From Nemertoderma westbladi (taxonomy: Eukaryota > Animalia > Xenacoelomorpha): a stretch of 64,000 bases of DNA. The translations under genes and the position numbers were made by a program. Numbering within the stretch: position 1 is the stretch's first letter; the number at the start of each line of letters is the position of its first letter. Positions 6,956 to 55,335 of the stretch are shown piece after piece. The notes beneath the pieces are model-generated. The model was not told the origin of the DNA, did not search any database, and saw nothing but the letters and a program-made list of their open reading frames with translations. The stretch is taken from the NCBI GenBank assembly GCA_032718475.1, contig JAUCBJ010008464.1, positions 71,816 through 135,815 of the forward strand, written 5' to 3'.

Positions 6956-6959
6956 TCTG

Positions 6960-16866: not shown

Positions 16867-16878
16867 TATATCTGTTAT
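16867..16878 (-). promoter_or_regulatory. Non-tRNA primer-binding site of copy B (ATAACAGATATA)
   Basis: Abuts the LTR end (...CGCGAACA), has no TGG, and is a perfect 12-bp reverse complement of LTR site 17407-17418. Confidence 0.8.
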
Positions 16879-17861
16879 TGTTCGCGCTTTTAGACCTTTA
16901 GCAGTTTAACCTGCCAAATTGGGATGTCTTCTAGATAATAAATCGACTTTAGCCTATGACGAGTATTTGATACACTACATTAGCCGAAGCCAGTCTATGC
17001 GCGACCATTCACCCGCTGGATATACCCGGGAGACTGGATTCGGAAGCTTAACCTTATTGCGGTGTAGGCCTACTGTATTATTCGACTGATCGTAATATAT
17101 AATCTCTGACAAATATTATTCACTTTCGGGAAATATTAACAGTTCCTTTAGGAACAACAACCAATACATGTAGTGCCTATGAAATAGCATTAGATTCACT
17201 TCAAAAACCACTTTAATGTAAGTCGCAATCGTTATATGTAACTGGTCTCTCTTACCTTCAGTATATCAAGAAGATTGAGGGTTTTGTAATTATTTATCGG
17301 TATTCCAAATATAATAATATTCCATCAACTGATATAATGAATAACCGACAGTAAATAGCAGTAAAAATGCGGTGTTTGTAGTTGACAATATGATTAGGTG
17401 AGTGAGATAACAGATATACGTTCTATAATTAAGCCTACTAATGTTGGGCTAAAGACTGAAAACACAGAGATTCCAAAGCCAGTCTTCTGGGCTCAGGACA
17501 AAATGTACACATTGACCCATAATGCATTGCGCGATTTCTCGGAGGTTTCTGTACAAAAAGCAGGAGAATCGCTCTGATTGGTTGACCGAACAAAGAAACA
17601 ACAGAGAACAAGGAAAAAAGCTACACGTGTACAGATCAGCTGTTAGCTGTCGTCATAGTAACTACACTGTTTCAAGAGGATTTCGCGTATTGTGACATAG
17701 AATTGCTAATTATGTCCGCTAAAGTACACATACAGAAGAAATGGCTTTTTATGTCCACTAAAACACCAGTACAGTAAGGATACGGCCTTTTATGCCTGTT
17801 AAACCAACTACAGAGTACTTTATGGGGAAAATAACCGGCTAATTCCGCAAAAGCTTTTACA
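16879..17861 (-). repeat. Copy B 5' LTR (983 bp)
   Basis: TGTAAAAGCTT...AAAAGCGCGAACA on the minus strand, same termini as the TSD-defined LTRs of copy C; contains a CCAAT box. Confidence 0.92.
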
Positions 17862-18515
17862 AAGGGAACGGTGGAGTGCTTGCAATGTGGTGGATTTCGG
17901 CTAAACAAATTCACTAGTAACTCCCGTGAGTTTTTGGAACGATCCTGGTAGAAGACCGAGGTGTTAAAGATCTGGATCTCATCAAGGACGATCTTCCAGA
18001 AACCAAAACACTTGGCTTAAAATGGGACACGGAGAGAGATATCGTGTTTTTCCAGTTAAAACAGCGAGATAATCCAGTTAGAACTAAACGGATTTGTCTA
18101 AGTATCCTGAGCACTTATTTCGATCCATTGGGATTTATTAGCCCAGTTATATTAGTTGCTCGGAGCTTAGTGCAACAAATGTGGCTCGAAAACCACTCGT
18201 GGGATGATCCACTTAAGGGAGAATTGCTAAAGAAGTGGATGAAATGGGAAGATTCTCTACCATCCATTGAGAACTTTATTATTTCCCGTTCATATTTTGG
18301 TAACGTTCTCCCCACATATTCCTATCAACTCCATGTGTTTGGAGACGCCAGCGATATGGGAATAGGTATAGTAGCCTACCTGAGGGTTGAAACTCCGGAT
18401 GGAATTAAAGTTGCCTTGGTCACCTCTAAGGCCTTGATAAACAACAAATTACGAGTTCCTCGAGCGGAGTTAAAGGCGGCTCTATACGCTACAGCCATCG
18501 GTCGGAATGTAACAG

Positions 18516-18924
18516 TAACAATGTGTTGGCAAGCTGTATTTTTCGAGGTGTTTGTTATTATACATTATATTATAAGAAGGGATCTAGGGGTCTTAACCTC
18601 GAATGATAAGTTTATTTTACCGAAAATAACTTATCTTTTATTGGCGCAATTGTAGGACTAATCCCATCACATGCGTACTTTTTAACCGGGTAGTGTACAA
18701 ATTTAGGAATCGCGTAATTTTTTTTTTTTTTTTTTTTTTTTCTTGAAATTAATATCTCATATCTCTCCAAACCACGTATGCGTTTCGACCTTACTGGGTC
18801 TCATCAGCGTGGTGTCGGATTCGAACCTGGGACCTCGAGGCGGAAGCCGAGACTACTTATTTTCGGTAAAATAAACTTATCATTCGAGGTTAAGACCCCT
18901 AGATCCCTTCTTATAATAAAATGT
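18516..18924 (-). mobile_element. Short retroposed insert with B-box, hammerhead motif, poly(A) and ~63-bp inverted repeat
   Basis: 12-bp TSD GGAATGTAACAG (18504-18515 and 18925-18936) interrupting pol; inverted repeat ~18567-18629 versus ~18857-18919. Confidence 0.8.
18771..18813 (-). ncRNA. Minimal type I hammerhead ribozyme motif (possibly degenerate)
   Basis: Minus strand reads ACCACG CTGATGA GACC cagtaa GGTC GAAA CGCATA CGTGGT: intact core, 6-bp stem I, 4-bp stem II, vestigial stem III. Confidence 0.8.
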
Positions 18925-21763
18925 GGAATGTAACAGAACAGATCGACTATCCACTGGAGAAAACTGTCTATTGGACTGATGCTTTACTCGTTCTGGAGTA
19001 TATAACAAATGAAGTCTGTCAGTTCAGCGTTTTCGTTACCAACAGAGTAGCCATTATACTTAGTCGCTCTAATGTAGATCAATGGAGACATTGCCCTGGG
19101 ACGATTAATCCAGCCGACATCGCTTCCAGAGGAACAACTCCTCAAGAACTGATAGATACTCCGGACTGGTTAGGTGGACCCGACTTCCTAAGTAAAGAAG
19201 AGCATGAATGGCCTCCTCATCTCACCACGGCAGAGATTAGACAAGCCAAGGGAGTGGAGAAAGTCAAACCTAAAACCCAGACGAGTAAATCAAAGTTATT
19301 TAAACCCGTGATAGATCTGTCTGTACTACAGATCTCTGGGGATGACGCTGTGGATCTTAACTCCCCCACCACGAACAAATCTGTTATAGAAATCAGGGAA
19401 AGAGACTGGAAATCTGGAACACCAGATGTCTCGCAAGGACTCTCCCCTCTCCTGCAGAGAGCAATAAATCATTATAGCTCCTGGAATCGGCTTTGCAAGG
19501 CCGTTGTGTATCTTAAAAGATGTTTCCATCATCACTATTCCAGGCCAAAGATCGCTAGTGATACCGCTACAATAATATCCGAAAAGGTCCATGCTATTAA
19601 AGACCTTCCCGCTTATAAAGTGTCTGATAGGTTTCTGAATGAGAAGATCAGTTACCAAGAGCATGAATATATCAATAAGCAGATACTGAGACTCCTGCAA
19701 TGCTATGAAGATTCCGATAAGTATTTCCTGTTGTTGAGAAATCCACAGATGCATTTGAGGGATCGTTTCTCTAGCACAATGATAGATGGGTTAATACGTG
19801 TCGGAGGGAGATTAACTAATGCTCCATTGTCCTTTGACACTAAGTTTCCCATACTCATTAGAAATCTTGAAATACAAATCAAGATGATTGTAGATGTTCA
19901 CAGTAGACTTTACCATGCTGGTAGAGAACTGGCTATTATTTCCATAAACCCCGCAGAGCTCTGAACCAAGTTCTTAGGAACTGTATACCCTGTAGGAAAG
20001 CATTCAGTAGGCCTTTAACACAGCGAGAGGCAGAATTACTTAGGGAACGAGTAAGCTTCTATGAACCACCCTTTACCAATACTGGGGTGGATTTATTTGG
20101 CCCTATTGAAGTATATCGTGCTAGGACTATAGTCAAGCGATGGTGTGTCATCTTTGTCTGTATGACTTGTAGAGCGATCCATCTAGATATGGTGAACGAT
20201 CTATCTACCAACAGCTTCATACTGAGTTTACGCCGACAGATCGCTCGTTTTGGGACTAGCAACACTATGAGATCCGACAAAGGAACGAACTTCATTGGCC
20301 AATAATGAGATCAAAGCTTACTTGAAAGATTGGAACCAAAGACAGGTGGACGATCAGCTAAGGATAACGGCATCTAGCTGGACCTTCAATGCCGCCGACG
20401 CCCCTTGGTGGGGAGGAAGTTGGGAGAGATTAATACGGAGTGTGAAGACCGCATTTCACTTTATAGTGCCGTGCCGCGCGTATCTCACTGACGAACTTTT
20501 GCGGACGTTAATGGAAGAAATGCCGCCTATCTTAACGAGAGACCGCTTATGCCAGTCTCATCGAGTCCCGACTCCCTAGAAGCGCTGACACCCACGCATT
20601 TCCTACTAAAGAAACCTGTAGCCATGCTCCCGTAATCGGAAATCACGGACGGAGACGAATACTACCGACAAACTTGGCAACTTATGCAGTTGTTATCCCG
20701 TCGTTTCTCTGACCATTTCGAAAAACATTATCTTCCTACACTACAACTTCGAACAAAGTGGTTTGCGCAGCAAGAAAACGTCAGCGCCGGAGACATGGTC
20801 CTTATTGTGGAATCAGATCTTCCACGTAAGAGGTGGCAGACAGGTCATATCATCGCGACTCATATATCCGATGATGGTTTAGTGCGATCGGTAAAACTCG
20901 TCGTCATGCGACGTAACTTTAAGAAACCTGGAATTGTATTCGAAACACAACAACTTAATCGCCCAGTTGGTCGTTTATGTTTACTGGAAAGAGACCGACA
21001 GTTATCCGGAAACTATGGAAGGCAAGATACTCTTCCCACGACCACCTCCCTAATCCAACAAACATCTAGGGACTCCTCAACGTAACAGCGTTTGGAGTGG
21101 GTGTGTGACTACATTATTTTATATATTTTTATCATTTTTATATTTATGTATGTATTATTATGTAATTTTATTATTATAATCGTTTTCTTTAATTTTATTT
21201 AGTAGAATAATATTTTAACGATTATTCAGTAGATTAGTGCAATATATATTCGTGTTTATTACTTAATTACTTAGCATTATATATTTCGTTTAATGGCGAG
21301 AAATAATTCATTTTCTGTTTCCTTACTGTCCGTATCATACTATAAATATGTGACTACAGTAAGATGAAATGTCCATACTTCTTAAAAGTACAATACCGTC
21401 CCTACTTTACTCAAGTATTATTGGTAAGTAGAGTATTAGGAATGCAATGTTCAGATCCTCGTGTCTCGGCTAAACCAAGCTCTGGGTAGACCTTGGAAAC
21501 GACTTGCCTCTTCTCACTGACATTGCTTCTTGCAATATTGCTCACATACCGTATATTAAATAATACATATAGTAGAATGATGTCCATTTAACAGTAGCGT
21601 AAAACGCAAAATAAATCTGTTAAACCCTTTGACCATCTGAAATTCTAGTCGATTAAGATATCGCGGCACCCACCGATATACTTGAAAGACAAAATTCTAG
21701 AATCAGTGGTTAACGTCCCCAAACATGTTCTGGAATAAATCGGTGCCCATCTTAAATATTAAA

Positions 21764-26665: not shown

Positions 26666-26743
26666 TAGTTTAGAGTATTTTTGTATTTTAGAAACTGTGA
26701 TTTTTTATATTTTATAGACTTAAATCCCATTTTCTGGGAGCGG

Positions 26744-27842
26744 TGTAAAAGCTTTTGCGGACATAACAAGTCATTTTTCCGCAATGCGCAGAATACTCTA
26801 AAATAGCCCTAAATTTATCCAACTACGCGACGGGAAGGAATTAAAGCCAGTATGACGAAATCTGTCAGCTGATTTCTTGTGGACGTGGAATTTCTTTGTT
26901 CTGCCTTATTCAGCCAATCAGAGCAATTTTCCCTTTATGTCTGACAGAGGCCTATGGAAACTCGCGCAATGCATTACGGTCTTTGTTTACTATTTTTCTG
27001 AGCATCAGAACCTGCTCGGAATCTTCTGTGCTTCTGTGTAGAATTTTCAGACTTTGGCCTAGGAAACATCAGATGGCCTTGATTATAATAACGTAAATCT
27101 ATTATCCTACTTAATCACCGCATCACATTTCATCATTATCAACTACATTTCATAACTGCATAAGTAACACATACTGACAGTTCACCGCATTATTTTACTT
27201 CTGTTATTAATTGTTGTTATATTAATGGATATTGGTGTTATATTTGGAGAATACCGATAAATAATCATAAACCCCTCAATCTTCTTAATTACTGAGTTAA
27301 GAGGAACAGGTTTTTCCGGTAGCAACTGCGACTTAAATTATAGTGGTTTTTGTGTGAATTAAATGCTATTTCATAATCCCTACGTGTGTCAGTTGCTATC
27401 CTCCTTATATATGATCAAATTTAGTGAAGGTCGGAAGATCAGTGCTAAGTAGTGTGAAGTAGTGTGAAGTCGTGTGAATTAGTGTGAAGGTTAATAAAGC
27501 ATCTCCTAAAGAATGCGCTATTTACAAAACTCTGAGGCCATCTAGTTGTGATTAGTATAAGTCATAAGTCATTTTATACTTAAAGCGCCACGCCTTAAAG
27601 GAACTGTTAATATTTCCCCGAAAGTAAATATATTTGTCAGAGATTATATAGTAACGATCAATCGAATAATACAGTAGGTCTACACTGCAATAACTCTCAA
27701 GGAATCCGAATCCAGTCTCCCAAATCGTGGGTGATAGGTCGCGCACGGACTGGCTTCGGCTGATGTAACTTCAGTACACTAGATAATTGATATAGGCTAA
27801 AGTCGATTTATAAACAAGAGGACAACTAAAATTGGCAGGTTA
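26744..27842 (+). repeat. Copy A/D 3' LTR (lacking the last ~30 bp)
   Basis: TGTAAAAGCTTTTGCGG directly after the PPT; CCAAT box; U5 homologous to B and C up to ttggcaggtta. Confidence 0.9.
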
Positions 27843-28904
27843 GGGGAGACTGGATTCGGGTGCTTTGAAGTTATTGCGTTGCAGACCTACTGTATTATTC
27901 GATTGATCGTTACTATATAATCTCTGACAATATTATTCACCTTCGGGGAAATATTAACAGTTCCTTTAGGACGTGGCGCTTTAAGTATATAAACAGAGTT
28001 ATGACTTATATTAAACACAACAAGATGGCTACTGATTTTCGTAAATAGCACATTCTTTAGGAGATGATTTATTATCTGTCACACTGCTGCATACGATTTC
28101 ACACTGCTGCACACTGATCTGCCGACCGTCACTGAATTTGACCATATATAAGGAGGATAGCAACTGACACATGTAGGGATTATGAAATAGCATTTAATTC
28201 ACACTAAAACCACTATAATGTAAGTCGCAATTGCTACCGGTAACCGGTCCCTCTTACCTTCAGTAATCAAGAAAATTGGGGTTTTATGATTATTTATCGG
28301 TATTCTCCAAATATAACAACATATCCATCAACATATAACAATTAATAACAGACAGTAAACAGAAGTAAAATAATGCGGTGATAGTCAGCCAGTATCGGTA
28401 ATACCGGTACGCAGGTGCCAAGTTCAGTAGTTGAGTTGAGTGTGGCCCAGTTGTTATGGTTTGTTGCACAGTTGCACAGTGCAGTCAGCCAGTTGACAAG
28501 ATAATAGATTTACGTTCCTATAATCAAAGCTGTCTAATGTTGGCCAAAGTCTGAAACTTCTACAGAAGCACAGAAAAATTCCAAAGCCGATGTTCTGAGG
28601 CTCAGGAAATGGTAAACACTAACACTGAATTGCGTGGGTTTCTGTAGGCTCCTTTCAACGCAAAGTGAAAATCGCTCTGATTGGCCGAACAGAACAAAGA
28701 GAAGTTCCATGTGTACAGTCTTTAGAGTATTAAGCGCATTGCGGTAAAGTAAGGCACGGTATACTGCGGGGAAAATGGCTTGTTATGTCCGCTAAAGCAC
28801 CCCACGGTACATTGCGGAGAAAAATGGCTTGTTATGTCCGCTAAAACAACTAAACAGTTCATTGCGGAGAAAAATGACTTGTTATATCCGCAAAAGCTTT
28901 TACA
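27843..28904 (-). repeat. Inverted, 3'-truncated LTR of a fourth family member (E)
   Basis: Begins TGTAAAAGCTTTTGCGG on the minus strand at 28904; reverse-complement homolog of 26744-27720; no PPT in the flank. Confidence 0.88.
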
Positions 28905-38143: not shown

Positions 38144-38308
38144 TGTGAATGAGGATTAGCGGGAGATTTGAACTATGTTTTACATGTGTAAGCTTGACAG
38201 TATTAGTGGTACAGTATGGTACAGTAGTCAGACAGTAAAGGGATACCAGTACGGTATTACCTAGTGCAATATGCTTTACAATATGCTTGTTGTTATATCG
38301 CATTAACA
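38144..38308 (+). repeat. Copia 5' LTR
   Basis: Near-identical to 55336-55500; preceded by CAATG. Confidence 0.96.
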
Positions 38309-38318
38309 TGGTAGCAGA
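38309..38318 (+). promoter_or_regulatory. Copia PBS, complementary to the initiator tRNA-Met 3' end
   Basis: TGGTAGCAGA immediately after the LTR. Confidence 0.85.
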
Positions 38319-38582
38319 AGCCAAACCACAGGGTGTTGATAATGGTACCAGTGTCTGGGCTATAACATACCTGAATTAATGTCGGAGATAACGTTTAATT
38401 TAAAGTACTGGTACAGAAATTAAACTTCAAGACATATTGTCAGTATCCTGTTATATCAGTATATTGTTAGATTGTTATCCAGCGGGAAATAAACGTATGG
38501 TACCGGTACTGTATACCAAACAATCTAAATACCAATATACCGATACGTATAAGACTGTAAGATATAGATAATAACTAATGCA

Positions 38583-39782
38583 ATGGATCAATCTACGATT
38601 GGGCCTAATACAAGTAATAATAGAGTTAATGTTAAAAATCCACCACCACTTAGAGAAGACCTATCTTATGAAAATTGGGTCCGAGAATTAGAAATATGGC
38701 AAGACGCGACGGACATTCCGAAAACTCGGCAGGGACCCACCGTTTTCCTGAGTTTAACTGGCGTCGCCAGTGAGGCGATTCTAGAGATCTCCCGGGATGA
38801 ATTAAAAGGTAAAGATGGAGTAAATCGTATCATAGAGAAACTCGATTCCTTGTATTTAAAAGATAAGGCCATACGGGCATTCCACTCTTATGATAAATTC
38901 TGTAGTTTTAGACGACCCACAGACTCCAATATCACAGATTTTATAATAACTTTTGAGCGAAACGTAAATAAATGTAAGGCGCTTAATATGATTCTTCCAG
39001 ATGGGGTTTTAGCCTATCAACTATTGAAATGCGCAAATTTAGATGATACCAAAAACCAATTAGCGTTAGCAACGGTCGGCGAGCTAACCTATGATAATAT
39101 GAAAAAGCAAATACTGAAATTATTCGTTGATGTTTCGCCTCAGTATGTAAATAGTAGTAGCAGAGATACGGATATTAAAATAAAATCTGAACCGATATTT
39201 GCTGCTTCGGTCGAACAGGATACCGGAACTTGGGATTCAGAGGATATTGAATGGGATTATGAAACTGATTGTTACTATGGAAATTCATATTACAGGGGGG
39301 GTTATCCACGAAGCAGCGGAAGGTTTAGTCGCAGGCCAAGAATAGCCAGATACATAGTCACTAACAATAGGAGACCTCAACGAGGAACTGTCACTTCCTA
39401 TCGGGTAAACGCGCCGAAAGCTGCAGGAACTTTGCGATTAAATCCTCCAGATCAGTACGGCAGACCTACACAATGTGGTTGCTGCATGTCGATTTATCAT
39501 TATGAATCCGATTGTAAAGAATCACCAAAAAGTACCGAATATAAGTCCGCTCTCTTTAACACTGTGAACATTGAAAATGAAGACAAGCTTCAAATTGACA
39601 ATATAACACTTTTCACCGACGCCGATCTTGTCACTAAAAATCATCTTCTGTCAGAAACTCTCAACTGTGCTATTATTGACACGGGCTGTACAACGACTGT
39701 CGCTGGAGAGACATGGCTGAGATGCTACATTGAGTCTTTAAACTGTGTCGATAAACGAGATATAGTTTATGAGGACAGCAAT
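38583..39782 (+). CDS. gag: Copia gag-pol, 5' part (gag, zinc knuckle, protease start)
   Basis: YENWVRELEIW...KTRQGPTVFLSL, CGCCMSIYHYESDC and protease IIDTGC; continues in frame at 51859 once copy C and one TSD are removed. Confidence 0.92.
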
Positions 39783-41028
39783 TGTAAAAGCTTCTGTGGG
39801 ATCTAACTGGCCCCTTTTGCTTCGCAATCCAGTTTCCCCCCAGGGGCTGGAATACTCTAAAAAGGTTCTCTAACTGTATATATATTCCCCTCGCCCGCAA
39901 GGTACCGTTACAGGTGTTTTAACGGACATAAAAGTCATTCTGCTATATACGTGTTTTGGCGGACATGGTAAGGCAAAAAACCTGTAATGCACCAACTACC
40001 TTTCACAGCTTAGCCGTGATGATTCATATTACGACATCTAACAGCTGGTTGCTGACATGGAAACAGCCATTGGATGCATGGTTCTTTGTTCGGCTTGAGC
40101 CAATCAGAGCGATTTTTCCTGTCGACGTGTAGCTTTTCGGTCGATCATAAGGAGAGTGTTCAGTCTTACTGCTTTTACTTGATACTTTGTTGTTATTGCT
40201 GTCTAAGCCAGAAACACCGGCTTTTTGGGAAGAACTCTAGTAAAACTGCTTAAATTATCGAAAGTATAAACTGTTACCTTAACAAATCAATAACTCACTA
40301 ATTAACATGCTCACTTAATTTAATTGCATTAATCATATTGTTTGTACTGTTATTTTACCGTCAGTTATTAATTGTACCTATTTGTTGATGGAAATATTGC
40401 TCTTTGGATAATACGGATAAATCACCCAAATTCCCAATTTTCTTGATACACTACAGGTTAGAGAGACCGGCTATACATAACAATTGCGATTTATATTAAT
40501 GTGGTGTGTATTGAATCCAATGTTATTTAGCAGACCCTACGTGAGTCAATTGCTGCTCTCTTTATGTGTGATCAAATATACTGACGGTCGGCAGAATAGT
40601 GTGTATGATTGTGATTGGTAACAAAGTATTTCCTAAAGAATACGTTTTATACTTCAATCATAAGCAGTATCGTTGCGTTTTAGTATAAGTCTTAGTTCTG
40701 TTTAGATAGATAGAGCGCCACGTCCTAAAGGAACTGTTAATATTTCCCGAAAGCCAATAATATCTGTCAGAAATTAATTATTAACGATCTATCGAATAAT
40801 ACAGTAAGTTTACACTGCAACCTTACACTGCAATAATAAAATTTAAGCATCCGAATTCAGCCTCCCGGGTGTAGATCCATCGGGTGAATGATCGCGCATG
40901 GGCTGACTTCGGCTAATGTTTTGTGTATTAGCATAAAATATTGTCGTATGCTAAAGGTGTTTTTATTAACTAAAAGACATATAAATTTTGGCAGGTTAAA
41001 CTGCTAAAGGTCTTCAAAAGCGCGAACA
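39783..41028 (+). repeat. Copy C 5' LTR (1246 bp)
   Basis: Direct repeat of 50611-51853, differing by one substitution and one short local replacement that I could see. Confidence 0.97.
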
Positions 41029-41041
41029 GTAACAGTTTATA
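41029..41041 (+). promoter_or_regulatory. Non-tRNA primer-binding site of copy C (GTAACAGTTTATA)
   Basis: Abuts the LTR, has no TGG, and is a perfect 13-bp reverse complement of LTR 40265-40277 (TATAAACTGTTAC). Confidence 0.82.
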
Positions 41042-41377
41042 ATCTTATTGCAGTAGGCAATAAGGTTGCAAAATACCGTAGTGACTGGTAAAACTGAACC
41101 GGTACTTTGTAGGTCAGTAGGCCTAACTGTCATCACCGGTACCGGTACTGCTGTACAAGTACATTTAGTATTATTCGATTTGATTATTGTATACTGGTAG
41201 GTCTTAGTACTTAATCAGGGACTGCAGCCCTGAATTTTTATTGAGATTTTACCTATTTCTGTCGGTTTTATTTCCTAGTAGGCTAATATTGAGCAGAAGG
41301 CGTGTGACCCTGCTCAGATTGTTCAGATAATTGTAGGCTGAGCTGCTGTCTGACTGTTGTTGAGTTTGGAGAGATTA

Positions 41378-41910
41378 CGGCGTATGTAGAGTTTGTCTGA
41401 TAAAGTGCCGTTAGTAAGTTGGGGCAGCCATATGCGGTAAGGTCAATCCCCTCTTAAAGAATAAGTCGTACTACCGTGTTAGAACGCATACTAACTAACA
41501 GTTTCAGAGTCTGCATATACTGTAGTTTATCTAGGCTTGATCGTAGTCTGCCAGTGTTTTAGCCTGAGTTTGTTTGTGTGGTCTGTTCAGGTACCGTAAT
41601 AGTTATTACTCAAATATTTGTAGGCTGGATTGTTGTCTAGCTATTTTTAGGTCTGAAGGGATTGCTGCGTGTGTAGAGTTGGTCTGATCAAGTGCCGTTA
41701 GTAAGTTGGGGCAGCCATAAGCGGTAAGGTCAATCCCCTCTTAAAGAGTAAGTCGTACTACCGTGTTAGAACGCATACTAACTAACAGTTTCAGAATCTG
41801 CACATACTGTAGTTTGTTTAGGCTTAATAGTAGTCTGCCAGCGTTTGGTTTGTATTTGTTTGAGTATTCTGTACGGGTAGCGTAATATTTATTATTCAGA
41901 GTTTATGCGA
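41378..41910. repeat. ~290-bp-period direct duplication in the copy C 5' UTR
   Basis: gtagagttt/ggtctgata/caagtgccgttagtaagttggggcagcc... occurs at ~41386 and ~41673. Confidence 0.8.
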
Positions 41911-43207
41911 TTATTCGCAACATTCATGTCCCCAAGTTTATTCCTACAGTAATTGTGCTTGTTATACATACCGTTATAGTTAAACTAACCCCGGTACTAC
42001 ATTAGGGCTGCTTGGCGTAGGTAAAGACTGACGACTTTGTGCTTCGGTCACTCCAGCAGATGCCGTGGTTCTTTTAACTGTTCAAGTATATTTAACTACT
42101 GATTATTTGTTATACCGGTACTTGTACCTAATTTAGGGTTTAGTGTACAGTGCTTTCCGAAGTAATTAGTGTAGGCAGTATATTTGTGTTGTAAAGTGGT
42201 TGATAGGCACATTCGTTAGCTCTATTAGCTTCTGGGTAGGAACAATCCGTGATACATAACGTAGTACCTATAGCGATACGGTTATAGGTCGTCAGGCGGT
42301 GGTATTTTCCTATCTGGACAGTACAATATATTTACTACTTATTATTTCAAATACCGTAGTACCCTGTCCGTTGTAATAACCAGAATTCTAACCCTTTGTT
42401 AGGCTGGTTTGTAGACTTCCTGTAAAATTACCCTAAAAATTTCGTACGTAATATTTTGTTGTGTTTAATTAGAGAATTAATCTCACCAGTATAGTAAGTA
42501 ATTTGTAGTATTAAGTAACTTAGGTAAATTATAATTATCAGTTTTAGTGTCAAATAAATAGCACTTCACTGAGAGGCGTTCAGCTTCTGTGTAGTGACTC
42601 CCCCAGAAATAATAACATTTATTTCAAATATTGACAAAAACCCATATAACGGGTATATAAATATTATAAATCAACTCAAACGATTTATAAATAGTAGGCC
42701 TGCCATACAACAACTAGGTCTCAATATCAGTTGGACTGCTGCTTAAATAACGGTAATAAAGTAAGTTAAAGTAACCAAGTAACCCTAAAATATTCAGAAA
42801 TTCAATTATTCTAAAATAATTGACATACCGGTATTTACCATAGGCTTATTATATTTATTTCTATAAATTTGAGCTGAAATCATACCGGTATTCTGTAATT
42901 AATTCTAGTAATAATTATACTTATATATACTATAAGTGTCAGCTGTATACCGGTATTCACGATAGGCCTATTATATATTTATATATATTTGTGCTAAAAT
43001 TATATACCGGTACTCTGTGACAAATCTAGTCTGTAATAATACTTATATATATATTATAAGCATACCGGTATTCTAATATATTATATATATATCACGCTAC
43101 ACTGAGTAGCAGTATCGGTAATTAATTATTAGGCTAACAGTGATACTGAATTACTAGACTTGCTTTAACTGTAATATAGCAGTAGGCGTTCGACTGTACA
43201 ATCAAAC

Positions 43208-46200
43208 ATGGCTGACACAAGGCAAACTCTGTCAGATAGTCTCCTAGAAACAACAGCCTGTTTCTCAGATCAAAGTGTAGAGAATCCCAGACCGAGGTCT
43301 GAAACCCCTCATACTGTAAGAAGGGCAACCCCTGCAGTGGTTGTGACAGAACCTAGGTTGGTAGAAAAGATTTCGCAATTTGCGAAGTTAGTGAAGCGCC
43401 GTTGGTCTGCCATAGGCACTCGGGCCCAAGTCAAGCGGGATCAAGAAGAAGCTATAAAACAGCAGCAACCTCCTAGCCAAGAACCTAGTTCTCAGCGGCC
43501 CGATAGCTCCAGTAGTTCGGATACTGTTGAGCGGACGCCCGAACGCGGAGCGAAGATGGCGGATACGGTTTATGATGGGCGGCCAGCCTGTGGGGAATCA
43601 ACCGACGCCACTTCTTCTCAAGTGGAAAGTGAGGTGGAAGGCGAAGTGGAAAGTGAGGTGGAAGGCGAAGTGGAAAGTGAGGTGGAAAGCGAAGTGGAAA
43701 GCGAGGTGGAAAGCGAAGTGGAAAGCGAATTAACATCAGCAGAGAAGCCGCGAACTAGAGACGCTATCGACATTTATTTGTCCGACTATCAGCGATTCCT
43801 AGGAGACGAAGAGTTGAGGAGACGGCTGTCTGGACTTTCCCCTAATAGTGAAGGAACCAAGCTTGTGTTGGACTCAATCGATGCCGAAATGTCAGCTGCA
43901 AACCAAGCTGAATGTGATGAAAAACTCCGCCTCATTAGAGTCCGAGAAGAACAAATAAAGAAAAGAAGGATAGAGGAACAAAAGGCGGCGGCTATGGCGG
44001 AGGCTATAGCAGATGCAGAAGCAGAAAGAAAGGCAGCGGCGGCAGAAGTAGAAGCAGAAAGAATAGCAGCAAAGGCAGCGGCGGCAGATGCAGAAGCAGA
44101 AAGAAAAGCAGCAAAGGCGGCGGCTGCGGCAGATGCAGAAGCAGAAAGAAAGGTGGCAAAGGCAGTGGCAGAAGCAGAAAGGAGAGCATCTGAGCAGACT
44201 ACCCAACTGGAGTTGGAGAATCTGCAAGAGACACAAGACAGTATAAATAAACAGTTTACTGCTAATCAAATGCAGATGATGAGAAAATCTACTCCCAAGC
44301 GCCAGGGGTACACATCCTCGGAGGAAGGCGATACTACCGACCCTGAAGGCGGAGGAAATAGATCTCATCTAAGTAGGCGTAGAAAAACATATTACCGTCG
44401 CAAATTGCCTGATTTGCCCCCAGCTGTTAAAAGACAGCTAACTAGCACAGATTTAGGTAGTGCAGAACCCATAGAACAATTTATCCAGGTCAAAAGACTC
44501 CCTACTATAGTCGATGAACCTGAAATAATTAGGCCTGTAGTTCCCAAAGTCACTTCTGTGCTAGAGACCCCTACACTTCCAGAGCTTAACTCTAAATTCC
44601 CTTTACATAGCACTACACTGCCTGTACCCGGTGGAACAGTCCATGCAAATACCCCTGTCCAGATAGCAGAGAGAGAAATCAATAATTTGTCTCCCGTCGT
44701 CCCGCGTCAGCCCGCTACTATGTTGGTGACTCCCGCTTCGGCGGTTGAGTGGGTGGAAGAGGGACGGCGGGGGATGAATCTCCTGCTAGGACAGATGCAG
44801 GAGACTGTCCACCAACTTAAGGGAACAGTGAGGGAAGGTAGAGCAGAGTTGCAAGAAGTGCAACAAAGTATCGCGCTAGAACGCGACAAATTAGTCAATA
44901 TACAAAAAGGCATACCAATGCCCCCTGTAACATTGTGTCAACCTGTTAGGTCTGAAGTACTACATGCGCAAGGTGTGGAGCCTACACGCATCTATACTGC
45001 TAGTGAAGTTGAAACTCCTATAGCAAACCCTATTAAGGGTGATTATAGACCTGTTATTAATGATATTCCCTATAGACCTGATAATGATCCGAGAAATTTA
45101 TATACCGATAATTCGATATTAAATAACACGATGGTCCAAGAAAGCTTTACGCGTCAGATGGCTAGAACAGAAGCCCGCCAAGCGGTCAAAGTGGGAGAGA
45201 TCGTCAAATTCAATGGAGACGAGATGAAATGGTTACCTTTCAACGAATATTACAAAGATAGCATACAGAACTCTGTACTATCTAACGGAGAGAAACTTAG
45301 ATTCCTCATCAAGTGCTTGGAAGGACCTCCCAAGTTAATGGCGTTAAAGTTTATTGGACATCCAGATGGATTAAGACAAGTTTGGGATACACTAAACATC
45401 AGGTATGGTAACAAGGATAACATAGCTAAGTATTTGTATGCAAAATTAGTAGCCCCCCGACACTTCCTTAGTAGTGGGATTATAGAGTTTTCCGATGAAA
45501 TTCAAGAGATCTGTAGACAACTGGACTGGTTAGGTAAGTCGCACGAATATCAGAGTTCCATGGTTATTGGAGCCGTAGTCTCTACTTTACCAAAGGGTGG
45601 AGTATGTACACGCTGGGACAAGAAAGTGTTGTACATGAATGAACAACAACGACGAAGTCCTACCATGGCTGATCTCATGTCTTTCTTAGATAGTGAAGTA
45701 AAATTACAACTCATAAGGCAGTCCAGAGAGAAAACATCGGAAAATAAGGTAAGTGAGAAACCCGTTTCTAGGAGAAGGATAATACCAGTGTGTTATACTG
45801 ACGACAGCGAAAGTCAAGCTTCTCAAGAAGAGGACAGCGGGAAAGACACAGCAAAATCTTACTATGACAACAAGACCTATAAAGACGTAAGTAAATACAA
45901 GTCTCGAACCAGTGACAGGAGAGAACAGGTAACAACAACTCCTCCTACGTCTCCTAAGAGAATTCACGGAAGAAAGCCCGAAGAAAGAACGAGAGTGCAG
46001 AACGTTAACCAAGTTAAGGTGAGTAACATCAAACCAAAATGTGCGCTGTGCGACGGGCCCCACCGTTTGAGTGCGTGTGCTGAATTTCTAAAGAAATCCC
46101 CTGTAGACAGACGTACAGTCCTGTGGAATAAGCGGTTATGCTATAATTGCCTCAGATCAGGACACCAACGGCGAACCTGTTACTCCGACGTAAAGTGTGC

Positions 46201-47470
46201 AAAGTGTGGCGCGAAACATCACATCTTGTTACACAGTGAGTTCGAACGAGACAACCCGAGTCAGGCAAGTGAGCCCGAACTACATGTCCAATTCAGTGAT
46301 GTGAACGACACTGACCAAGGTTCTGAGTGGGAAGGATTCTATACAGACGAATTCTCCGATGCCAACGAATCCTGTTATCTAATAAATACCACAGTGTATC
46401 GAGCACTTACGGATGAAAAGGACACTGACGAGTTTACTCCAACTCCTTTTGACAAACAACCATCTTGGAAAGTTCCGACTTCCAACATAGGAATAAGAGA
46501 ATTTCCTGTAGTGCAAGTTCGAGTTCATGGTCTTAACAAGAGTTACATAGTGAACGCCCTACTTGACTCCGGCAGCACAGGAACTTTCATCGATCAAGAA
46601 CTAGCCGAAGATATCTTTGCTGGACAACCCAAGTTCCGGATTAAATTGAATATGTCAGGAATTATACAGGTTTGGAAATCTACCCTAACGGCAGATTACT
46701 ATGTAGGTGAGTTGTCCACCCCCCAGGATAAATTAGGAGCACAAAGTATAAGGTCAGTAAAAATGGTGGCTATAAAGAACTTCGCTACTACCCAAGCAGA
46801 CCTTTATAACTGGGACGAGGACGAGTGCATCCAACATCTTGAGATACCTCGATTCCAAACCGATTATCCTGGAGTGCAAATCCTCATCGGCCAAAACGCG
46901 CATGAGGCGCTCGAGACATTGGAGAAACGGCCTGCTCAACTGCAGCCATTACAAACTTATGCGGTAAGAACTAGAGTAGGTTGGTACTTTACTGGCCCTT
47001 CCCGCAGAACTCTTGAAGAAAGATTGCCACAAGACCGGCTACTTCAAGTAAAGGATTGGGAAGAGGGGAGCAGTGAAGTGGACGAACCCACTGAGGTAAC
47101 ACCATACTCCTCAGATAATGACGATATTAACTCCAATGTAGATCAATGGAGACATTGCCTTGGGACGATTAATCCAGCCGACATCGCTTCCAGAGGAGCA
47201 ACTCCTCAAGAACTGATAGATACTCCAGGCTGGTTAGGTGGATCCGACTCCTTAAGTAAAGAAGAAGAAGAATGGCCTCCTCATCTTACCACGGCAGAGA
47301 GTAGACAGGCCAAGGGAGCGGAGAAACTAACACAACAACTCAATCGCCCAGCTGGTCGTTTATGTTTACTGGAAAGAGACCGAAAACTGTCCGGAAACTA
47401 TGGAAGGCAAGATACTCTTCCTACGACCACTTCCCTAATCCGACAAATATCTAGGGACTCTATAACGTAA
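43208..47470 (+). CDS. gag: BEL/Pao gag-protease polyprotein (1420 aa) fused in frame to short RNase H-end and pol C-terminal remnants
   Basis: Open ORF with KFNGDEMKWLPF (DUF1759-like), CALCDGPHRLSAC / CYNCLRSGHQRRTC / CAKCGAKHHILLH and ALLDSGS; no RT or integrase motifs. Confidence 0.93.
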   Translation: MADTRQTLSDSLLETTACFSDQSVENPRPRSETPHTVRRATPAVVVTEPRLVEKISQFAKLVKRRWSAIGTRAQVKRDQEEAIKQQQPPSQEPSSQRPDSSSSSDTVERTPERGAKMADTVYDGRPACGESTDATSSQVESEVEGEVESEVEGEVESEVESEVESEVESEVESELTSAEKPRTRDAIDIYLSDYQRFLGDEELRRRLSGLSPNSEGTKLVLDSIDAEMSAANQAECDEKLRLIRVREEQIKKRRIEEQKAAAMAEAIADAEAERKAAAAEVEAERIAAKAAAADAEAERKAAKAAAAADAEAERKVAKAVAEAERRASEQTTQLELENLQETQDSINKQFTANQMQMMRKSTPKRQGYTSSEEGDTTDPEGGGNRSHLSRRRKTYYRRKLPDLPPAVKRQLTSTDLGSAEPIEQFIQVKRLPTIVDEPEIIRPVVPKVTSVLETPTLPELNSKFPLHSTTLPVPGGTVHANTPVQIAEREINNLSPVVPRQPATMLVTPASAVEWVEEGRRGMNLLLGQMQETVHQLKGTVREGRAELQEVQQSIALERDKLVNIQKGIPMPPVTLCQPVRSEVLHAQGVEPTRIYTASEVETPIANPIKGDYRPVINDIPYRPDNDPRNLYTDNSILNNTMVQESFTRQMARTEARQAVKVGEIVKFNGDEMKWLPFNEYYKDSIQNSVLSNGEKLRFLIKCLEGPPKLMALKFIGHPDGLRQVWDTLNIRYGNKDNIAKYLYAKLVAPRHFLSSGIIEFSDEIQEICRQLDWLGKSHEYQSSMVIGAVVSTLPKGGVCTRWDKKVLYMNEQQRRSPTMADLMSFLDSEVKLQLIRQSREKTSENKVSEKPVSRRRIIPVCYTDDSESQASQEEDSGKDTAKSYYDNKTYKDVSKYKSRTSDRREQVTTTPPTSPKRIHGRKPEERTRVQNVNQVKVSNIKPKCALCDGPHRLSACAEFLKKSPVDRRTVLWNKRLCYNCLRSGHQRRTCYSDVKCAKCGAKHHILLHSEFERDNPSQASEPELHVQFSDVNDTDQGSEWEGFYTDEFSDANESCYLINTTVYRALTDEKDTDEFTPTPFDKQPSWKVPTSNIGIREFPVVQVRVHGLNKSYIVNALLDSGSTGTFIDQELAEDIFAGQPKFRIKLNMSGIIQVWKSTLTADYYVGELSTPQDKLGAQSIRSVKMVAIKNFATTQADLYNWDEDECIQHLEIPRFQTDYPGVQILIGQNAHEALETLEKRPAQLQPLQTYAVRTRVGWYFTGPSRRTLEERLPQDRLLQVKDWEEGSSEVDEPTEVTPYSSDNDDINSNVDQWRHCLGTINPADIASRGATPQELIDTPGWLGGSDSLSKEEEEWPPHLTTAESRQAKGAEKLTQQLNRPAGRLCLLERDRKLSGNYGRQDTLPTTTSLIRQISRDSIT

Positions 47471-49094
47471 TAACATATGGAGTGGGCGTGTGGCTATATC
47501 ATTTTATATTTGTTTTTATTTTATATTTATGTATGTATTATTATGTAATTTTATTATAATCGTTTTCTTTAATTTTATTTAGTAAAATGTTATTTTAGAA
47601 AATTTAGTAAATTAGTGCAATATATTAGTGTTTATTACGTACATAATTACTTATAATATATATTTAGTGCGACAGCGAGAAATAATTATTTTCTCTTCCC
47701 TTACTGTCCGTATCATATTATAAATACGTGACTACAGTAAGATGAAATGTCCGTACTTCTTAAAGTACAATAAAGCCACTACTATATTCAAGTATTATTG
47801 GTAGGCAGAGTATTAGGAATGCAAAGTTCAGATCCTCGTGTCTCGGCTAAACCAAGCTCTGGGTAGACCTTGGAAACGACTTGCCTCTTCACACTGACAT
47901 TGCTTTGTGCGATATTGCTCTTCTACCTTATATTAAATAATACATATAGTAGCGTGATGTCCCTCTAACAGTAGCGTAAATCGCAAATAAATCTGTTAAA
48001 CTTTTTGACCATCTGTAATTCTAGTCGATTAAGATATCGTGGCACCCACCGATATACTTGAAAGACAAATTCTAGAATCAGTGGTTAATGTCCCCAGACA
48101 AGTTCTGGAATAAATCGGTGCCCATCCAAAATATTAATTTAATATTTATTAAAATCTGTAAAATTCCGATCCTTTAAAATTTCTAGTCAATTAAGATATC
48201 GCAGCACTTACCGATACTCTTAAAAAGACAAATTTCATAGAATTCAGGATCCTATGTCCCCAGACCTGCTCTGGAATCAAATTGTGCCAATTTAACATCA
48301 AATAATAAAATTCGAGGGAATAATTTTAAATTCATATTCAAATGAATTTCATAAATTGTCATTTTGTGAAATTTGTAACATTCCCAAAATTTCAGTAATT
48401 AATAGATCATGGGAGCGGAGATTCATATTGAGTGTACTAGAGTGCGAGAATCTCCAATATATAGTCAATAGCCGATAAAATTTATAAAATCATGCATAAA
48501 GAGGATATTGACAATTAAAGAATTACTATTAAATAACATCCCAGATCTGTATACATGAGAATTGCCCTAATTCTACCGCTAGTTTTCCATAATGTCACCA
48601 TGGCAACACCCACGCTAGAATTAGAAGCAAGTTAAATGAACAATAAAAAGCTTGCCCCATTGCGTAGCATAAGAGTATACATAGCGCACTATTAGTATCC
48701 AAGGATACATAGTAATAACGTGACATTCTGGAAGACACTGACTAACGGACAAATGGCATGCATGTGTGCAGTAAGTAATGATTGTATGGAATTTGTGCGT
48801 TTATAGGTGAATGTTACTACTAAAGTGTGTTTACAGTAGCTAATCGCAATTGTAAAATAGCCCTAACTCTACCGAGATAACCTCAAGTGGATTCAAGCCT
48901 TTGGGACGGACAGTGGTGGGACTTGTGCCGGTTATCGTTGTCGTGCCGTTGCTACATGTTGGCGTAAACACTGCGACAACGGTACATCGGCGCTGAGAAA
49001 CCCACTGTCCGGGGGCAAAAGGCCTAGTAGGCAGCGACGCCCGCTTGCCTAAAATATTAACTCATATTGATATTAATAAACTCAGATAGCAGAT

Positions 49095-49493
49095 ATGACG
49101 GAATTGATAGAAGATGACCTTGGTATTAGAGAGCGATATACTCTACCTTTACAAGCGTTTGTGGATAGCTTGATACGCGGTGAAGCCGATCCGACTATTA
49201 CGGAGGACGATGGTCGTTATATCGAACCGCTGATGTCCCAGGAACAACTTACGCGTGAATTGGACTATCGAAAATTAACCGCTCGCTATACGCATCGTAA
49301 TGGTACGTATATGGACTTCTTAACTACCGGCCATCCTATCGATTTACATGATACGGACGATGTAGACACCGAAAGGGAAATGGTTCTATTTAAATATCAT
49401 ACCCAGCGGCGTCGTAACGATAAACCGAGAATAGATCACGAAAATTCTATTCGTAACAGACTGGGAAGACGAACCAATATGTCTAGAATCTGA
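49095..49493 (+). CDS. Accessory ORF3 N-terminal part (copy C)
   Basis: MTELIEDDLGIRERYTLPLQAFVDSLIRG... conserved in three copies; ends at a deletion junction. Confidence 0.65.
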   Translation: MTELIEDDLGIRERYTLPLQAFVDSLIRGEADPTITEDDGRYIEPLMSQEQLTRELDYRKLTARYTHRNGTYMDFLTTGHPIDLHDTDDVDTEREMVLFKYHTQRRRNDKPRIDHENSIRNRLGRRTNMSRI

Positions 49494-50584
49494 GGAGATT
49501 CAGCCTATCGCGCTCGGAACAGCGACAACGATTATGGTATCAAGGTCCACAGTGTCTCACTGCGTACGATTATCGCCATGCCAACTATGTTTCTCGGCAA
49601 CATTGTCGGTTATGCGCATCGAGAGACCATGTTACGCCCATGGACACAAACGTCCGCTGTTCCTATTTCCACGAACAACCGGCGATGGAAATTTATTGCG
49701 CATATTGCAGATTTAATAATTTGCACATTTTTGCCGTTTGCCCTCAATTTATGACTCAATGTCACCATTGTCAACTAAAGGGACATGCCAGTTTCGATTG
49801 CCCTTTTAATCACGATTTGGAAAGCGTAGATGAAATGATCACACTACGTTACATCAGAGCTTGGGAAGCGAACACTGATTTATATTGTGATTCACGCCAT
49901 CGCTATTATCCTGGACGCGCCTACGAAGGAGTTTATGCGTTCCATCCATATTTGTTTGCCTCCGTCGAGCAGAAATCGCGCCTATCAAGTTATGAACTAT
50001 TGAAGCGCGTTGGAGAATGTATTTCAACCAAATATGTACGCAAATTCCTCAGGAGCATTAATCCGAGTGACATCAATTCGTATAACTTAATAAACTTTAT
50101 CCGTCAAGATCCGGCCTATGGAGACTTATTTGTCAACTCACACCCTGAGTTACAGGAAGTATATCGACGGCCTTACGAGTACAGAACCCGCGAACGCGAG
50201 TTGGAAAGAACCATTAAACCAAGGAAGTTTCTAACTGCCTATGGTCCACCCACGGCCCTCGTTCAGACCACTCGTAAAGGACCCGTAAGAGCGGCTGTCT
50301 TGAAACGAGCTCTCAAAGCCGTTAGACCCTCTCCCCGGACGTTGATGTCAATCAACCCGGTGCTTCGACCGGCGGGTATACCGATCGCAATCCCATACCT
50401 TCTGATGCAATCATATTGCACTCTTCACCCAGGAGTTATAGCCCTCCTCGTAAAGTGGCTCGCCCCAAAGAGAAAAGGACTCTTGCTAGCTTTAAAAAAC
50501 TGCGTAAACGCCGTCCGCGCAAGAAAGACTAACTGTTTAGAGTATTTTTATATTTTAGAAACTGTGATTTTGTATATTTTATAG
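49487..50584 (+). CDS. Accessory ORF3 C-terminal part with three CCHC-type zinc knuckles (copy C)
   Basis: Frame open from 49487 (first ATG 49640): CRLCASRDH...C, CAYCRFNNLHIFAVC, CHHCQLKGHASFDC; distal part homologous to 26258-26717. Confidence 0.75.
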   Translation, partial: NLRRFSLSRSEQRQRLWYQGPQCLTAYDYRHANYVSRQHCRLCASRDHVTPMDTNVRCSYFHEQPAMEIYCAYCRFNNLHIFAVCPQFMTQCHHCQLKGHASFDCPFNHDLESVDEMITLRYIRAWEANTDLYCDSRHRYYPGRAYEGVYAFHPYLFASVEQKSRLSSYELLKRVGECISTKYVRKFLRSINPSDINSYNLINFIRQDPAYGDLFVNSHPELQEVYRRPYEYRTRERELERTIKPRKFLTAYGPPTALVQTTRKGPVRAAVLKRALKAVRPSPRTLMSINPVLRPAGIPIAIPYLLMQSYCTLHPGVIALLVKWLAPKRKGLLLALKNCVNAVRARKTNCLEYFYILETVILYIL

Positions 50585-50610
50585 ACTTAAATCCCATTTT
50601 CTGGGAGCGG

Positions 50611-51853
50611 TGTAAAAGCTTCTGTGGGATCTAACTGGCCCCTTTTGCTTCGCAATCCAGTTTCCCCCCAGGCGCTGGAATACTCTAAAAAGGTTCTCTA
50701 ACTGTATATATATTCCCCTCGTGTTTTAACGGTTATCGGTGTTTTAACGGACATAAAAGTCATTCTGCTATATACGTGTTTTGGCGGACATGGTAAGGCA
50801 AAAAACCTGTAATGCACCAACTACCTTTCACAGCTTAGCCGTGATGATTCATATTACGACATCTAACAGCTGGTTGCTGACATGGAAACAGCCATTGGAT
50901 GCATGGTTCTTTGTTCGGCTTGAGCCAATCAGAGCGATTTTTCCTGTCGACGTGTAGCTTTTCGGTCGATCATAAGGAGAGTGTTCAGTCTTACTGCTTT
51001 TACTTGATACTTTGTTGTTATTGCTGTCTAAGCCAGAAACACCGGCTTTTTGGGAAGAACTCTAGTAAAACTGCTTAAATTATCGAAAGTATAAACTGTT
51101 ACCTTAACAAATCAATAACTCACTAATTAACATGCTCACTTAATTTAATTGCATTAATCATATTGTTTGTACTGTTATTTTACCGTCAGTTATTAATTGT
51201 ACCTATTTGTTGATGGAAATATTGCTCTTTGGATAATACGGATAAATCACCCAAATTCCCAATTTTCTTGATACACTACAGGTTAGAGAGACCGGCTATA
51301 CATAACAATTGCGATTTATATTAATGTGGTGTGTATTGAATCCAATGTTATTTAGCAGACCCTACGTGAGTCAATTGCTGCTCTCTTTATGTGTGATCAA
51401 ATATACTGACGGTCGGCAGAATAGTGTGTATGATTGTGATTGGTAACAAAGTATTTCCTAAAGAATACGTTTTATACTTCAATCATAAGCAGTATCGTTG
51501 CGTTTTAGTATAAGTCTTAGTTCTGTTTAGATAGATAGAGCGCCACGTCCTAAAGGAACTGTTAATATTTCCCGAAAGCCAATAATATCTGTCAGAAATT
51601 AATTATTAACGATCTATCGAATAATACAGTAAGTTTACACTGCAACCTTACACTGCAATAATAAAATTTAAGCATCCGAATTCAGCCTCCCGGGTGTAGA
51701 TCCATCGGGTGAATGATCGCGCATGGGCTGACTTCGGCTAATGTTTTGTGTATTAGCATAAAATATTGTCGTATGCTAAAGGTGTTTTTATTAACTAAAA
51801 GACATATAAATTTTGGCAGGTTAAACTGCTAAAGGTCTTCAAAAGCGCGAACA
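50611..51853 (+). repeat. Copy C 3' LTR (1243 bp)
   Basis: Follows the PPT; ends CGCGAACA then TSD GCAAT. Confidence 0.97.
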
Positions 51854-51858
51854 GCAAT

Positions 51859-54800: not shown

Positions 54801-55155
54801 GCTGGCGGCGGAAACGGTTGAAATGGTAGAAGCTGTCGAATCAGCATTTCTACAATCTCAATTCATAAAGGAATTGATAGGTAATATAGATATACCCATA
54901 ACAGCCCTAACTGATAGTAAATCATTGTATGAAGCCACTCACTCCTTAACATCAGTTCGAGACAAGCGACTACGAATAGATATTGCGATTCTGAGAGAAA
55001 TGTTGGCTCACAAAGAACTTTCAGGTATCATCTGGGTTCCCACCAATCTGCAAATCGCAAACGTTCTCACCAAACAAGGAGCTAATGTCGGGTCTATTAA
55101 ATGGGCTCTACGACGATCAGCTACATATGATAGACATGAATGGAAATTTAAATGA
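51859..55155 (+). CDS. pol: Copia gag-pol, 3' part (protease end, integrase, RT, RNase H)
   Basis: FRFGDG, DIPLLLS, LHKQFAH..CDIC, SDNGGEF, SPWSNGLVERHN, KARLCARGF, DIKSAYLQG, YGLNESGRKW, HIDD, YSDAS, SSLAAE, TDSKSL. Confidence 0.95.
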   Translation, partial: VWFRFGDGERYLSKVRAKIPIHVGSQRVYLHVNLVQCDIPLLLSRSAIKKANRKIDFNEDTIELLGEKLDLIISSTGHYCLALYRSKELMVENAKQILFTSPLKGKDKNELEKDINKLHKQFAHPPASRLKELITDAGYSSILINSIIDDVTKQCDICKRFKSAPLKPVVGFPLANTFNETVGMDLKEIRPGFHILHFVDHATRFSQAALINNKRKETIVEKIFDYWIRLFGAPMKFLSDNGGEFNNGELLELCEKFNIRVLTTAAESPWSNGLVERHNRILANCIEKIVFQSPVNLNLAVQWAISAKNSLINVYGFTPNVLVFGKNPNFPSNFVNKLPADGSACSSSIVRDNLNALHLARESFIRQESCEKLRRSLSRKTRAYSDYIFTNGEEVYYKRNNSTAWKGPAKVLGVDNKMVLVKHGGQYLRVHPCRLQLVNVNVKNDEITSSNYNVNNKVIETSDDDSDMNENNLSNIPGYSPDAAANSFEGTSTPSIGKDETQENTKTKLPCTKENIEYLENNSDQWKSAKILGRGGKATGKFWHFINMENAAGEQYCKSFRDDIKEWRINTVSDGTKNNTVDAEEASEETVTDTFISSDVDDNMKRFDRAKEEELKKWIDMKTYVEVEDAGQYAISTKWVLTEKLKNDGVQLKARLCARGFEDDGCGRTESPTCYKDSLRVCLILISTFGLRLNVIDIKSAYLQGIPMERDVYILPPKESHTAFLWRLNHSVYGLNESGRKWYLRVVEEFTKLNVKKSQFDPAIFYSHRNNKLNGIIVIHIDDMVWAGDDFFKINIIDRLKSTFIVSYESSVVMKYLGLDLKQDRDCVTINLSKYVQDINAGNIEVPSDRISVKESPLTDHEAREYKGLLGQLNWATTQCLLDASFDSCQLACFSRSANIGHLLRILKTIKRLKYNDLSIHLHNLGEPNHLEILCYSDASLGNLPDGGSQGGHIVLLLGNNNKASIISWHSKRIRRVVKSSLAAETVEMVEAVESAFLQSQFIKELIGNIDIPITALTDSKSLYEATHSLTSVRDKRLRIDIAILREMLAHKELSGIIWVPTNLQIANVLTKQGANVGSIKWALRRSATYDRHEWKFK

Positions 55156-55335
55156 ATTGATGTTTTGATGCTATAATAACTCCAATGTCCCAAGTTTAAA
55201 TTTGAATAATGAAATATTTTTGGGGAGCTATCGCAAGTGTGACGGGTTGAGATTTACTTGGTAATTATTTATTTACTTAATATGTGAACTGAGGTGGTGG
55301 TTACCTATTAATATTATTAGAAAGTTATGGGAGTA

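Follow-up and report, generated by a model that had tools for sequence, protein, structure and literature searches.

Candidate self-priming in a BEL/Pao-type retrotransposon family of Nemertoderma westbladi, predicted from primer-binding sites that match the elements' own LTRs

Retrotransposons at the locus

The window, by which we mean the whole 64-kb stretch of DNA that was analysed, holds a nested set of animal LTR retrotransposons, several of which belong to one family (copies A, B and C and the truncated LTR E; Table 1). Copy A is flanked by a direct repeat and has LTRs that are 98.9% identical. It is inserted in a Copia element (38144-55500) with RVT_2 and rve matches and 165-bp LTRs (98.8% identical), and open frames of this Copia element lie on both sides of the insertion. 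Copy B, on the minus strand, has LTRs that are 98.4% identical; because its 3' LTR is truncated at 6960, the end of its LTR was placed by identity with the last 13 bases of the copy A LTR. Between 26744 and 28904, two truncated LTRs of the family meet tail to tail, in opposite orientation, at 27843/27844. A plus-strand gag fragment (copy D, 4411-6960) stops where the truncated 3' LTR of copy B starts, and a single element with a deletion at the copy B insertion may account for copies D and C. In copy A, 14 of the 15 differences between the LTRs fall within about 20 bases (39890-39912), which suggests a single recombination or conversion event together with a very young insertion. The window also holds a 31-bp tandem array (562-1512) and a 36-bp array within an inverted-repeat element (61941-63138).

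In both A and B the coding sequence for Gag (PF03564, with zinc knuckles) and a protease is followed only by a short remnant of the RNase H end; the copy A frame is missing RT, most of RNase H and integrase. The remaining markers of the family come from copy C. PF05380 is present in each of the 26 homologues found for the RNase H piece (29-41% identity). A BEL-type Gag (PF03564 in A and B) is combined with a Pao-type RNase H region (PF05380 in C), as tblastn of five BEL polyproteins also indicates, and the domain order is protease then RNase H end in A and B, and RNase H then integrase in C. TG...CA LTRs, a short TSD and a PPT, all features of BEL/Pao, are present. On these protein markers only, the family is of BEL/Pao type, as the first-pass annotation of this DNA had proposed, and the same markers place it outside the Tf1/sushi group of the Ty3/gypsy chromovirus lineage. 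Within the 64-kb window there is neither a BEL RT nor an intact RNase H. Copies A and B are non-autonomous: lacking RT and integrase, they would need a helper. A further open frame near the 3' end of copy A has no Pfam match, and no homologue of similar length was found for it.

Table 1. Positions of the features discussed; those of loci L076, L049 and L066 are in the coordinates of the fetched sequences
Feature	Position	Strand	Remarks
Copy B PBS, 12 nt	16867..16878	-	exact complement of 17418-17407
Copy B 5' LTR, 983 bp	16879..17861	-	end placed by identity with copy A
Copy B duplex 3 LTR arm	17055..17063	-	predicted; pairs with 16859-16851, 9 bp
Copy B predicted self-primer site, 12 nt	17407..17418	-	
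Copy C, same family	17862-27842	+	3' LTR (C3) truncated
Copy C broken RNase H (Peptidase_A17, PF05380) and integrase remnants	17930..21000	+	BEL/Pao markers of the family
Third primer-site variant, truncated copy C 3' LTR	27094..27105	+	no PBS in window
Truncated LTR E, same family	28904-27844	-	
Third primer-site variant again, LTR E	28501..28512	-	
TGG-type PBS of host Copia	38309..38320	+	control; TGG at +1 after LTR
TSD left, GCAAT	39778..39782	+	direct repeat with right TSD
Copy A 5' LTR, TG...CA, 1246 bp	39783..41028	+	from LTR-pair identity and TSD
CCAAT box	40100..40104	+	in 6/6 LTR copies, 163-180 nt upstream of primer site
Copy A predicted self-primer site, 13 nt	40265..40277	+	exact complement of PBS
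Duplex 3 LTR arm	40816..40836	+	predicted; two 10-bp Watson-Crick helices with post-PBS leader; crosses primer duplex (pseudoknot topology)
Duplex 2 LTR arm	40889..40897	+	predicted; pairs with final bases of LTR
U5 hairpin	40987..41008	+	predicted, p 0.95; identical in A and B
Last LTR bases, 3' arm of duplex 2	41020..41028	+	predicted
Copy A PBS	41029..41041	+	adjoins LTR, no TGG; exact complement of 40265-40277
Leader hairpin or leader arms of duplex 3	41042..41070	+	predicted; hairpin 41042-41066 (p 0.98), or arms 41045-41054 and 41061-41070
Open frame: Gag (DUF1759, zinc knuckles), protease, short RNase-H-end remnant	43175..47470	+	
Copy A 3' open frame	49487..50584	+	two CCHC-like knuckles; region absent from B and C
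Purine-rich tract (PPT) before 3' LTR	50603..50610	+	identical in B and C
Copy A 3' LTR	50611..51853	+	holds second primer-site copy, 51090-51102
TSD right, GCAAT	51854..51858	+	5-bp repeat of left TSD
L076	donor 2403, acceptor 2768, LTR end 2963, PBS 2969		
L049	donor 6401, acceptor 6751, PBS 154		
L066	donor 2150, acceptor 2317, PBS 2428		

A PBS that changes in step with the LTR

The first-pass annotation had fixed the end of the copy A LTR by its TSD and reported that no TGG follows. Both points hold, the first TGG downstream of the LTR lying at +58 in copy A and +60 in copy B. Neither copy has a TGG-type (tRNA) PBS, and in this they depart from the ICTV description of BEL/Pao elements, which includes a PBS complementary to a host tRNA. 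In the 64-kb window ARAGORN detected no tRNA, and Rfam gave 0 matches in 39700-43300, so that this part contains no known ribozyme or tRNA. The segment that follows the terminal CA of copy A without a spacer is instead the exact reverse complement, over exactly 13 nt, of a site inside both LTRs of the element, as had been claimed. The annotation was also right that copy B has a different PBS with a matching site in its own LTR. A PBS that abuts the LTR, does not begin with TGG and is complementary to at least 11 nt of the LTR is the arrangement of Tf1-type elements.

As a chance control we simulated 20,000 LTRs with an order-1 Markov model; the 13-nt match of copy A was reached by 1/20,000 and the 12-nt match of copy B by 8/20,000. 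The two primer sites occupy the same columns of the LTR alignment, and at least two substitutions and one 1-nt indel set them apart, each of which is mirrored in both site and PBS. Matches across copies are short (5 nt between the copy A PBS and the copy B LTR, 7 nt between the copy B PBS and the copy A LTR). All 25 primer-PBS pairs of A and B together are Watson-Crick, whereas neighbouring helices include G-U pairs. GT(A) stands ahead of the site in each of the four LTR types, and perfect pairing breaks off sharply before an invariant G. A second LTR octamer, also complementary to the core of the copy A PBS, is invariant and shows no covariation with the PBS. Given their LTR identities, A and B are young and must have replicated with these PBSs.

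Only these two copies in the 64-kb window carry both site and PBS. A third variant of the site occurs in copy C and in LTR E, and the PBS predicted from it is absent from the window outside the LTRs themselves. One contig of run X1 has 35 differing letters over the PBS region (41023-41071), in an ambiguous orientation, and may represent a further PBS variant; the run X1 contigs over LTR A and the copy B LTR end gave no readable PBS-site pairs and revealed no start or end, and their zero-depth bin over the primer site is a gap that carries no weight as evidence. A 27-nt pattern of the LTR end had 0 matches in viral and metagenome contigs, and BEL profiles detected no relatives among viral contigs.

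Predicted structure of the RNA

In Tf1, the RNA's initial 11 bases anneal to the PBS, and RNase H cleaves between bases 11 and 12 (available text of PMC7175516). The available text of PMC10085805 describes the Tf1 structure as three duplexes, the primer-PBS helix and two more that join sequence next to the PBS with LTR sequence lying downstream of the primer. For RNAs that start at the site, the primer-PBS duplex of our elements is predicted with p 0.95 (A) and 0.94 (B). The loops between site and PBS are 751 nt (A) and 528 nt (B), in line with the 530-750 nt given in the first-pass annotation, and the hairpins that it had placed around the PBS (40988-41007 and 41041-41067) are predicted at nearly the same bases (Table 1).

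Counterparts of the two additional Tf1 duplexes can potentially form in both copies. In duplex 2, the final bases of the LTR pair with an upstream LTR arm, which in copy B lies at the homologous place; the regions have predicted energies of -16.6 (A) and -17.7 (B) kcal/mol. In duplex 3 of copy A the leader would pair with 40827-40836 and 40816-40825 (10+10 bp, -25.3 kcal/mol), and in copy B there is a 9-bp core (-21.7 kcal/mol) with a compensatory T-A to C-G change relative to A; the folding program cannot model the pseudoknot as one structure. The copy B leader would pair equally well with the copy A arm (-21.6), the reverse cross giving -13.0, and duplex 3 has a competitor in a local hairpin of about -10. 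The longest run in duplex 3 is matched by chance in 146/3000 simulations for copy A (10) and 279/3000 for copy B (9), and duplex 3 alone is therefore statistically weak. According to these models, A and B can form both flanking duplexes of the Tf1 'pretzel', which lends self-priming added support.

Distant relatives with junction-spanning matches

We fetched 79 BEL/Pao loci, 45 of them with upstream sequence. A TGG-type motif was found in 24 of the 45, and many of the other 21 are without an LTR end. In three families (L076, L049 and L066/L068) there is no TGG PBS, and an 11-12-nt PBS finds its match solely across a predicted exon-exon junction in the element's own LTR. A strict script recovered such a match across a predicted splice junction in 2/53 loci (L049 and L076); that of L066 was added by eye and with a relaxed script, L068 being an identical copy of L066. 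Control searches gave 3/300 for the L076 region, and 0/300 for L066 but with a filter that missed the L066 acceptor. Only for L076 does a second copy (L078, 7447) define where the LTR ends; the first 592 bases of L078 are unrelated and carry a TGG-type motif. A 12-nt match in L063 was dropped, being at chance level, and 12-nt matches in L076/L078 were rejected since they lie inside gag.

All junction families fall in one RNase H clade with support of 99, within which L071 and L072, with LTR and leader present, have no 11-nt match. The relationship of this clade to the family in the window is unstable in trees that were built from unnamed loci. The RNase H tree leaves the window sequence unplaced, while in the integrase tree it groups with the junction-primer loci with support of 98 in a set of 51 rows but 77 in one of 34 rows, and its grouping with loci that have a tRNA PBS is not rejected (p-AU 0.65). 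The junction-spanning matches suggest that the segment which pairs need not, in BEL/Pao, lie at the very start of the RNA.

A candidate intron can also be discerned in the LTR of the window family, between primer site and PBS (40457-40770 in A, and homologous places in B, C3 and E). By inspection of consensus signals, it has an acceptor-like TGTCAG in 4/4 and, in B and E, a donor-like GTAAGA that is weaker in A and C3; copy B has lost about 180 nt from its middle.

Where the primer would begin

A CCAAT box usually lies 60-100 nt from the transcription start. The distance from CCAAT box to primer site, 165 nt in copy A as the first-pass annotation had stated, exceeds this in every LTR copy and counts against the site as the start. 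The copy A site itself reads like a TATA box, which is not so in B, C and E. In copy A the primer-PBS duplex is predicted when the RNA starts at the site itself or 1 or 10 nt further upstream, and has p 0.0 in 7/7 starts 25-160 nt upstream; in copy B it is retained at 10/10 starts tested. The hints are split. The copy A duplex, which needs a start within about 10-25 nt, favours a cap start, while the far CCAAT box and the junction-spanning primers of the distant families speak against it. The balance tips only slightly towards the 5' end of the primer being the cap site, with a start near 40264-40266, over a start further upstream.

Self-priming may also take a form in which transcription starts tens of bases upstream and a longer 5' fragment, or a piece cleaved at both of its ends, serves as the primer, so that only its last 12-13 nt pair. 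We regard this form, which is part of the self-priming reading and not a rival to it, as possible but doubtful. Besides the CCAAT spacing, it can draw on an initiator-like TCAG(T/A)C 40-46 nt upstream in B, C and E (about 104 nt in A), and on the pairing of copy B, which runs 7 bp further upstream past a 2x2 loop. In the junction families, moreover, the upstream exon supplies 4-7 nt of the match, and a primer beginning at the cap is difficult to square with this. Against it, an upstream start abolishes the predicted copy A duplex, perfect pairing halts before the invariant G in 4/4 LTR types much as if the template had run off an end, and the kinship of the junction families with that in the window is unstable.

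Probable self-priming and its alternatives

We propose that for minus-strand DNA synthesis copies A and B probably use a fragment of their own RNA as primer and not a tRNA. This reading, which the first-pass annotation had put forward, is favoured by the absence of a tRNA PBS, by the covariation of site and PBS and by the predicted flanking duplexes; to that annotation it can be added that A and B are non-autonomous. By analogy with Tf1, the mechanism would run as follows. In the folded RNA, 40265-40277 would pair with 41029-41041, flanked by the predicted U5-end duplex (40889-40897 with 41020-41028) and by the crossing duplex of the leader with 40816-40836. RNase H from an autonomous helper would cut after 40277, and RT, likewise supplied by the helper, would extend the 3'-OH at 40277 into the terminal CA. 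During plus-strand synthesis the primer would then be copied into the PBS of the next element, which would account for letters that drift and pairing that nevertheless remains purely Watson-Crick.

The pairing could alternatively be a structural or regulatory helix, serving packaging, translation or the masking of a weak splice donor, with priming left to a tRNA half or another host RNA. All four sites do follow GT, as would be expected of a masked weak donor, and the shared core, CTGTTA, may resemble an Asn anticodon loop. Half-tRNA priming moreover exists in Copia lineages (available text of PMC6317226). We nevertheless consider this explanation unlikely. A host RNA cannot account for a PBS that changes in step with the LTR of each copy, indel included; all 25 pairs are Watson-Crick, where nearby helices use G-U; and the helix sits exactly where the 3' end of a primer must be.

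Since the site occurs in both LTRs, the primer might also be the RNA's own 3' end, with 51090-51102 cut and polyadenylated, or it might come from the second RNA of a dimer. A hexamer resembling a poly(A) signal is, however, not conserved 10-40 nt upstream of the site, where copy A has one (-26) and B, C and E have none, and the sole hexamer common to all four LTR types lies 120-214 nt downstream of it. We hold a 3'-end primer to be somewhat less probable still than a regulatory helix. Least credible is that the match arose by chance, or is a functionless relic of a template-switch duplication. The sequence is AT-rich and complete cases number only two, but the simulated frequencies, the identical position in both copies and the compensated differences have already largely refuted this idea.

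Comparison with known elements

Belpaoviridae (Semotivirus) are described as having LTRs, a PPT, Gag, Pol and an 18-nt PBS for a host tRNA, and their replication as poorly understood (ICTV, PMC8742986). The window family shares the LTRs, the PPT and the Gag and Pol markers, and differs by being without the host-tRNA PBS (PMC8742986). The available parts of PMC6317226 and PMC4600332 report self-priming in Tf1/sushi, and give it as a prediction in Tcn1 and in plant Copia TAR elements. Our elements resemble Tf1/Tf2, Tj1, Tosmo and the Tf1/sushi group in a PBS directly after the terminal CA, without TGG, in a short LTR complement and in the potential for three duplexes (accessible text of PMC10085805, PMC7175516 and PMC4600332). 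They differ from that group, as far as these texts describe it, in carrying BEL/Pao and not chromovirus markers, in pairing over 12-13 nt and not 11, in a loop of 528-751 nt, and in being non-autonomous. With the plant Ty1/copia TAR elements (Houba, Osr-1) and the Tcn1 clade they share a prediction of self-priming drawn from PBS-LTR complementarity, TAR being likewise outside Ty3/gypsy and likewise a prediction, but belonging to another superfamily and host kingdom (available part of PMC6317226). Dictyostelium Skipper, fungal GalEa and bivalve TRIMs are also without a TGG-type PBS; in the portions available of PMC5006619 and PMC6934838, however, Skipper is stated to be without a complementary LTR region, and GalEa and the TRIMs have internal hairpins and not an LTR-matched PBS.

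No self-priming in BEL/Pao was found in the literature searched, which lay outside subscription journals, Repbase and Dfam. The terms 'PBS' and 'tRNA' are absent from the available portions of the BEL/Pao surveys PMC3118150, PMC554778 and PMC6238403, and those of PMC3601003, PMC8220671, PMC6934838, PMC5006619 and PMC13524379 hold no case of BEL/Pao self-priming. The first-pass annotation knew of no report of self-priming in BEL/Pao, and this holds within the literature searched, but it missed the prediction for plant Copia TAR elements, outside Ty3/gypsy (available part of PMC6317226). Self-priming in A and B would best be seen as a known mechanism in variant form, extended to a third LTR superfamily and new to BEL/Pao in the literature searched; it may have arisen independently there, as the first-pass annotation proposed. 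A C. elegans Cer element has reportedly been proposed to encode its own tRNA-like primer, which would be a different mechanism.

Implications

A wider scenario, which we hold to be slightly more doubtful than probable, is that an undescribed, broad animal branch of BEL/Pao has swapped tRNA priming for self-priming and converged on the three-duplex structure of Tf1. The pairing segment would be ready-made in the window family or created by splicing of an LTR intron (L049, L066/L068, L076/L078), and the capped first nucleotides would not have to serve as the primer.

Since these elements have no tRNA-type PBS, annotation based on the PBS misses them. The covarying pairs supply exact, testable positions for the predicted start, cut and primer. 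If BEL/Pao self-priming is true, self-priming would be a trait of all three LTR superfamilies, which would touch on the question which of the two, tRNA priming or self-priming, is the older, and the elements may escape control by host 3' tRNA fragments.
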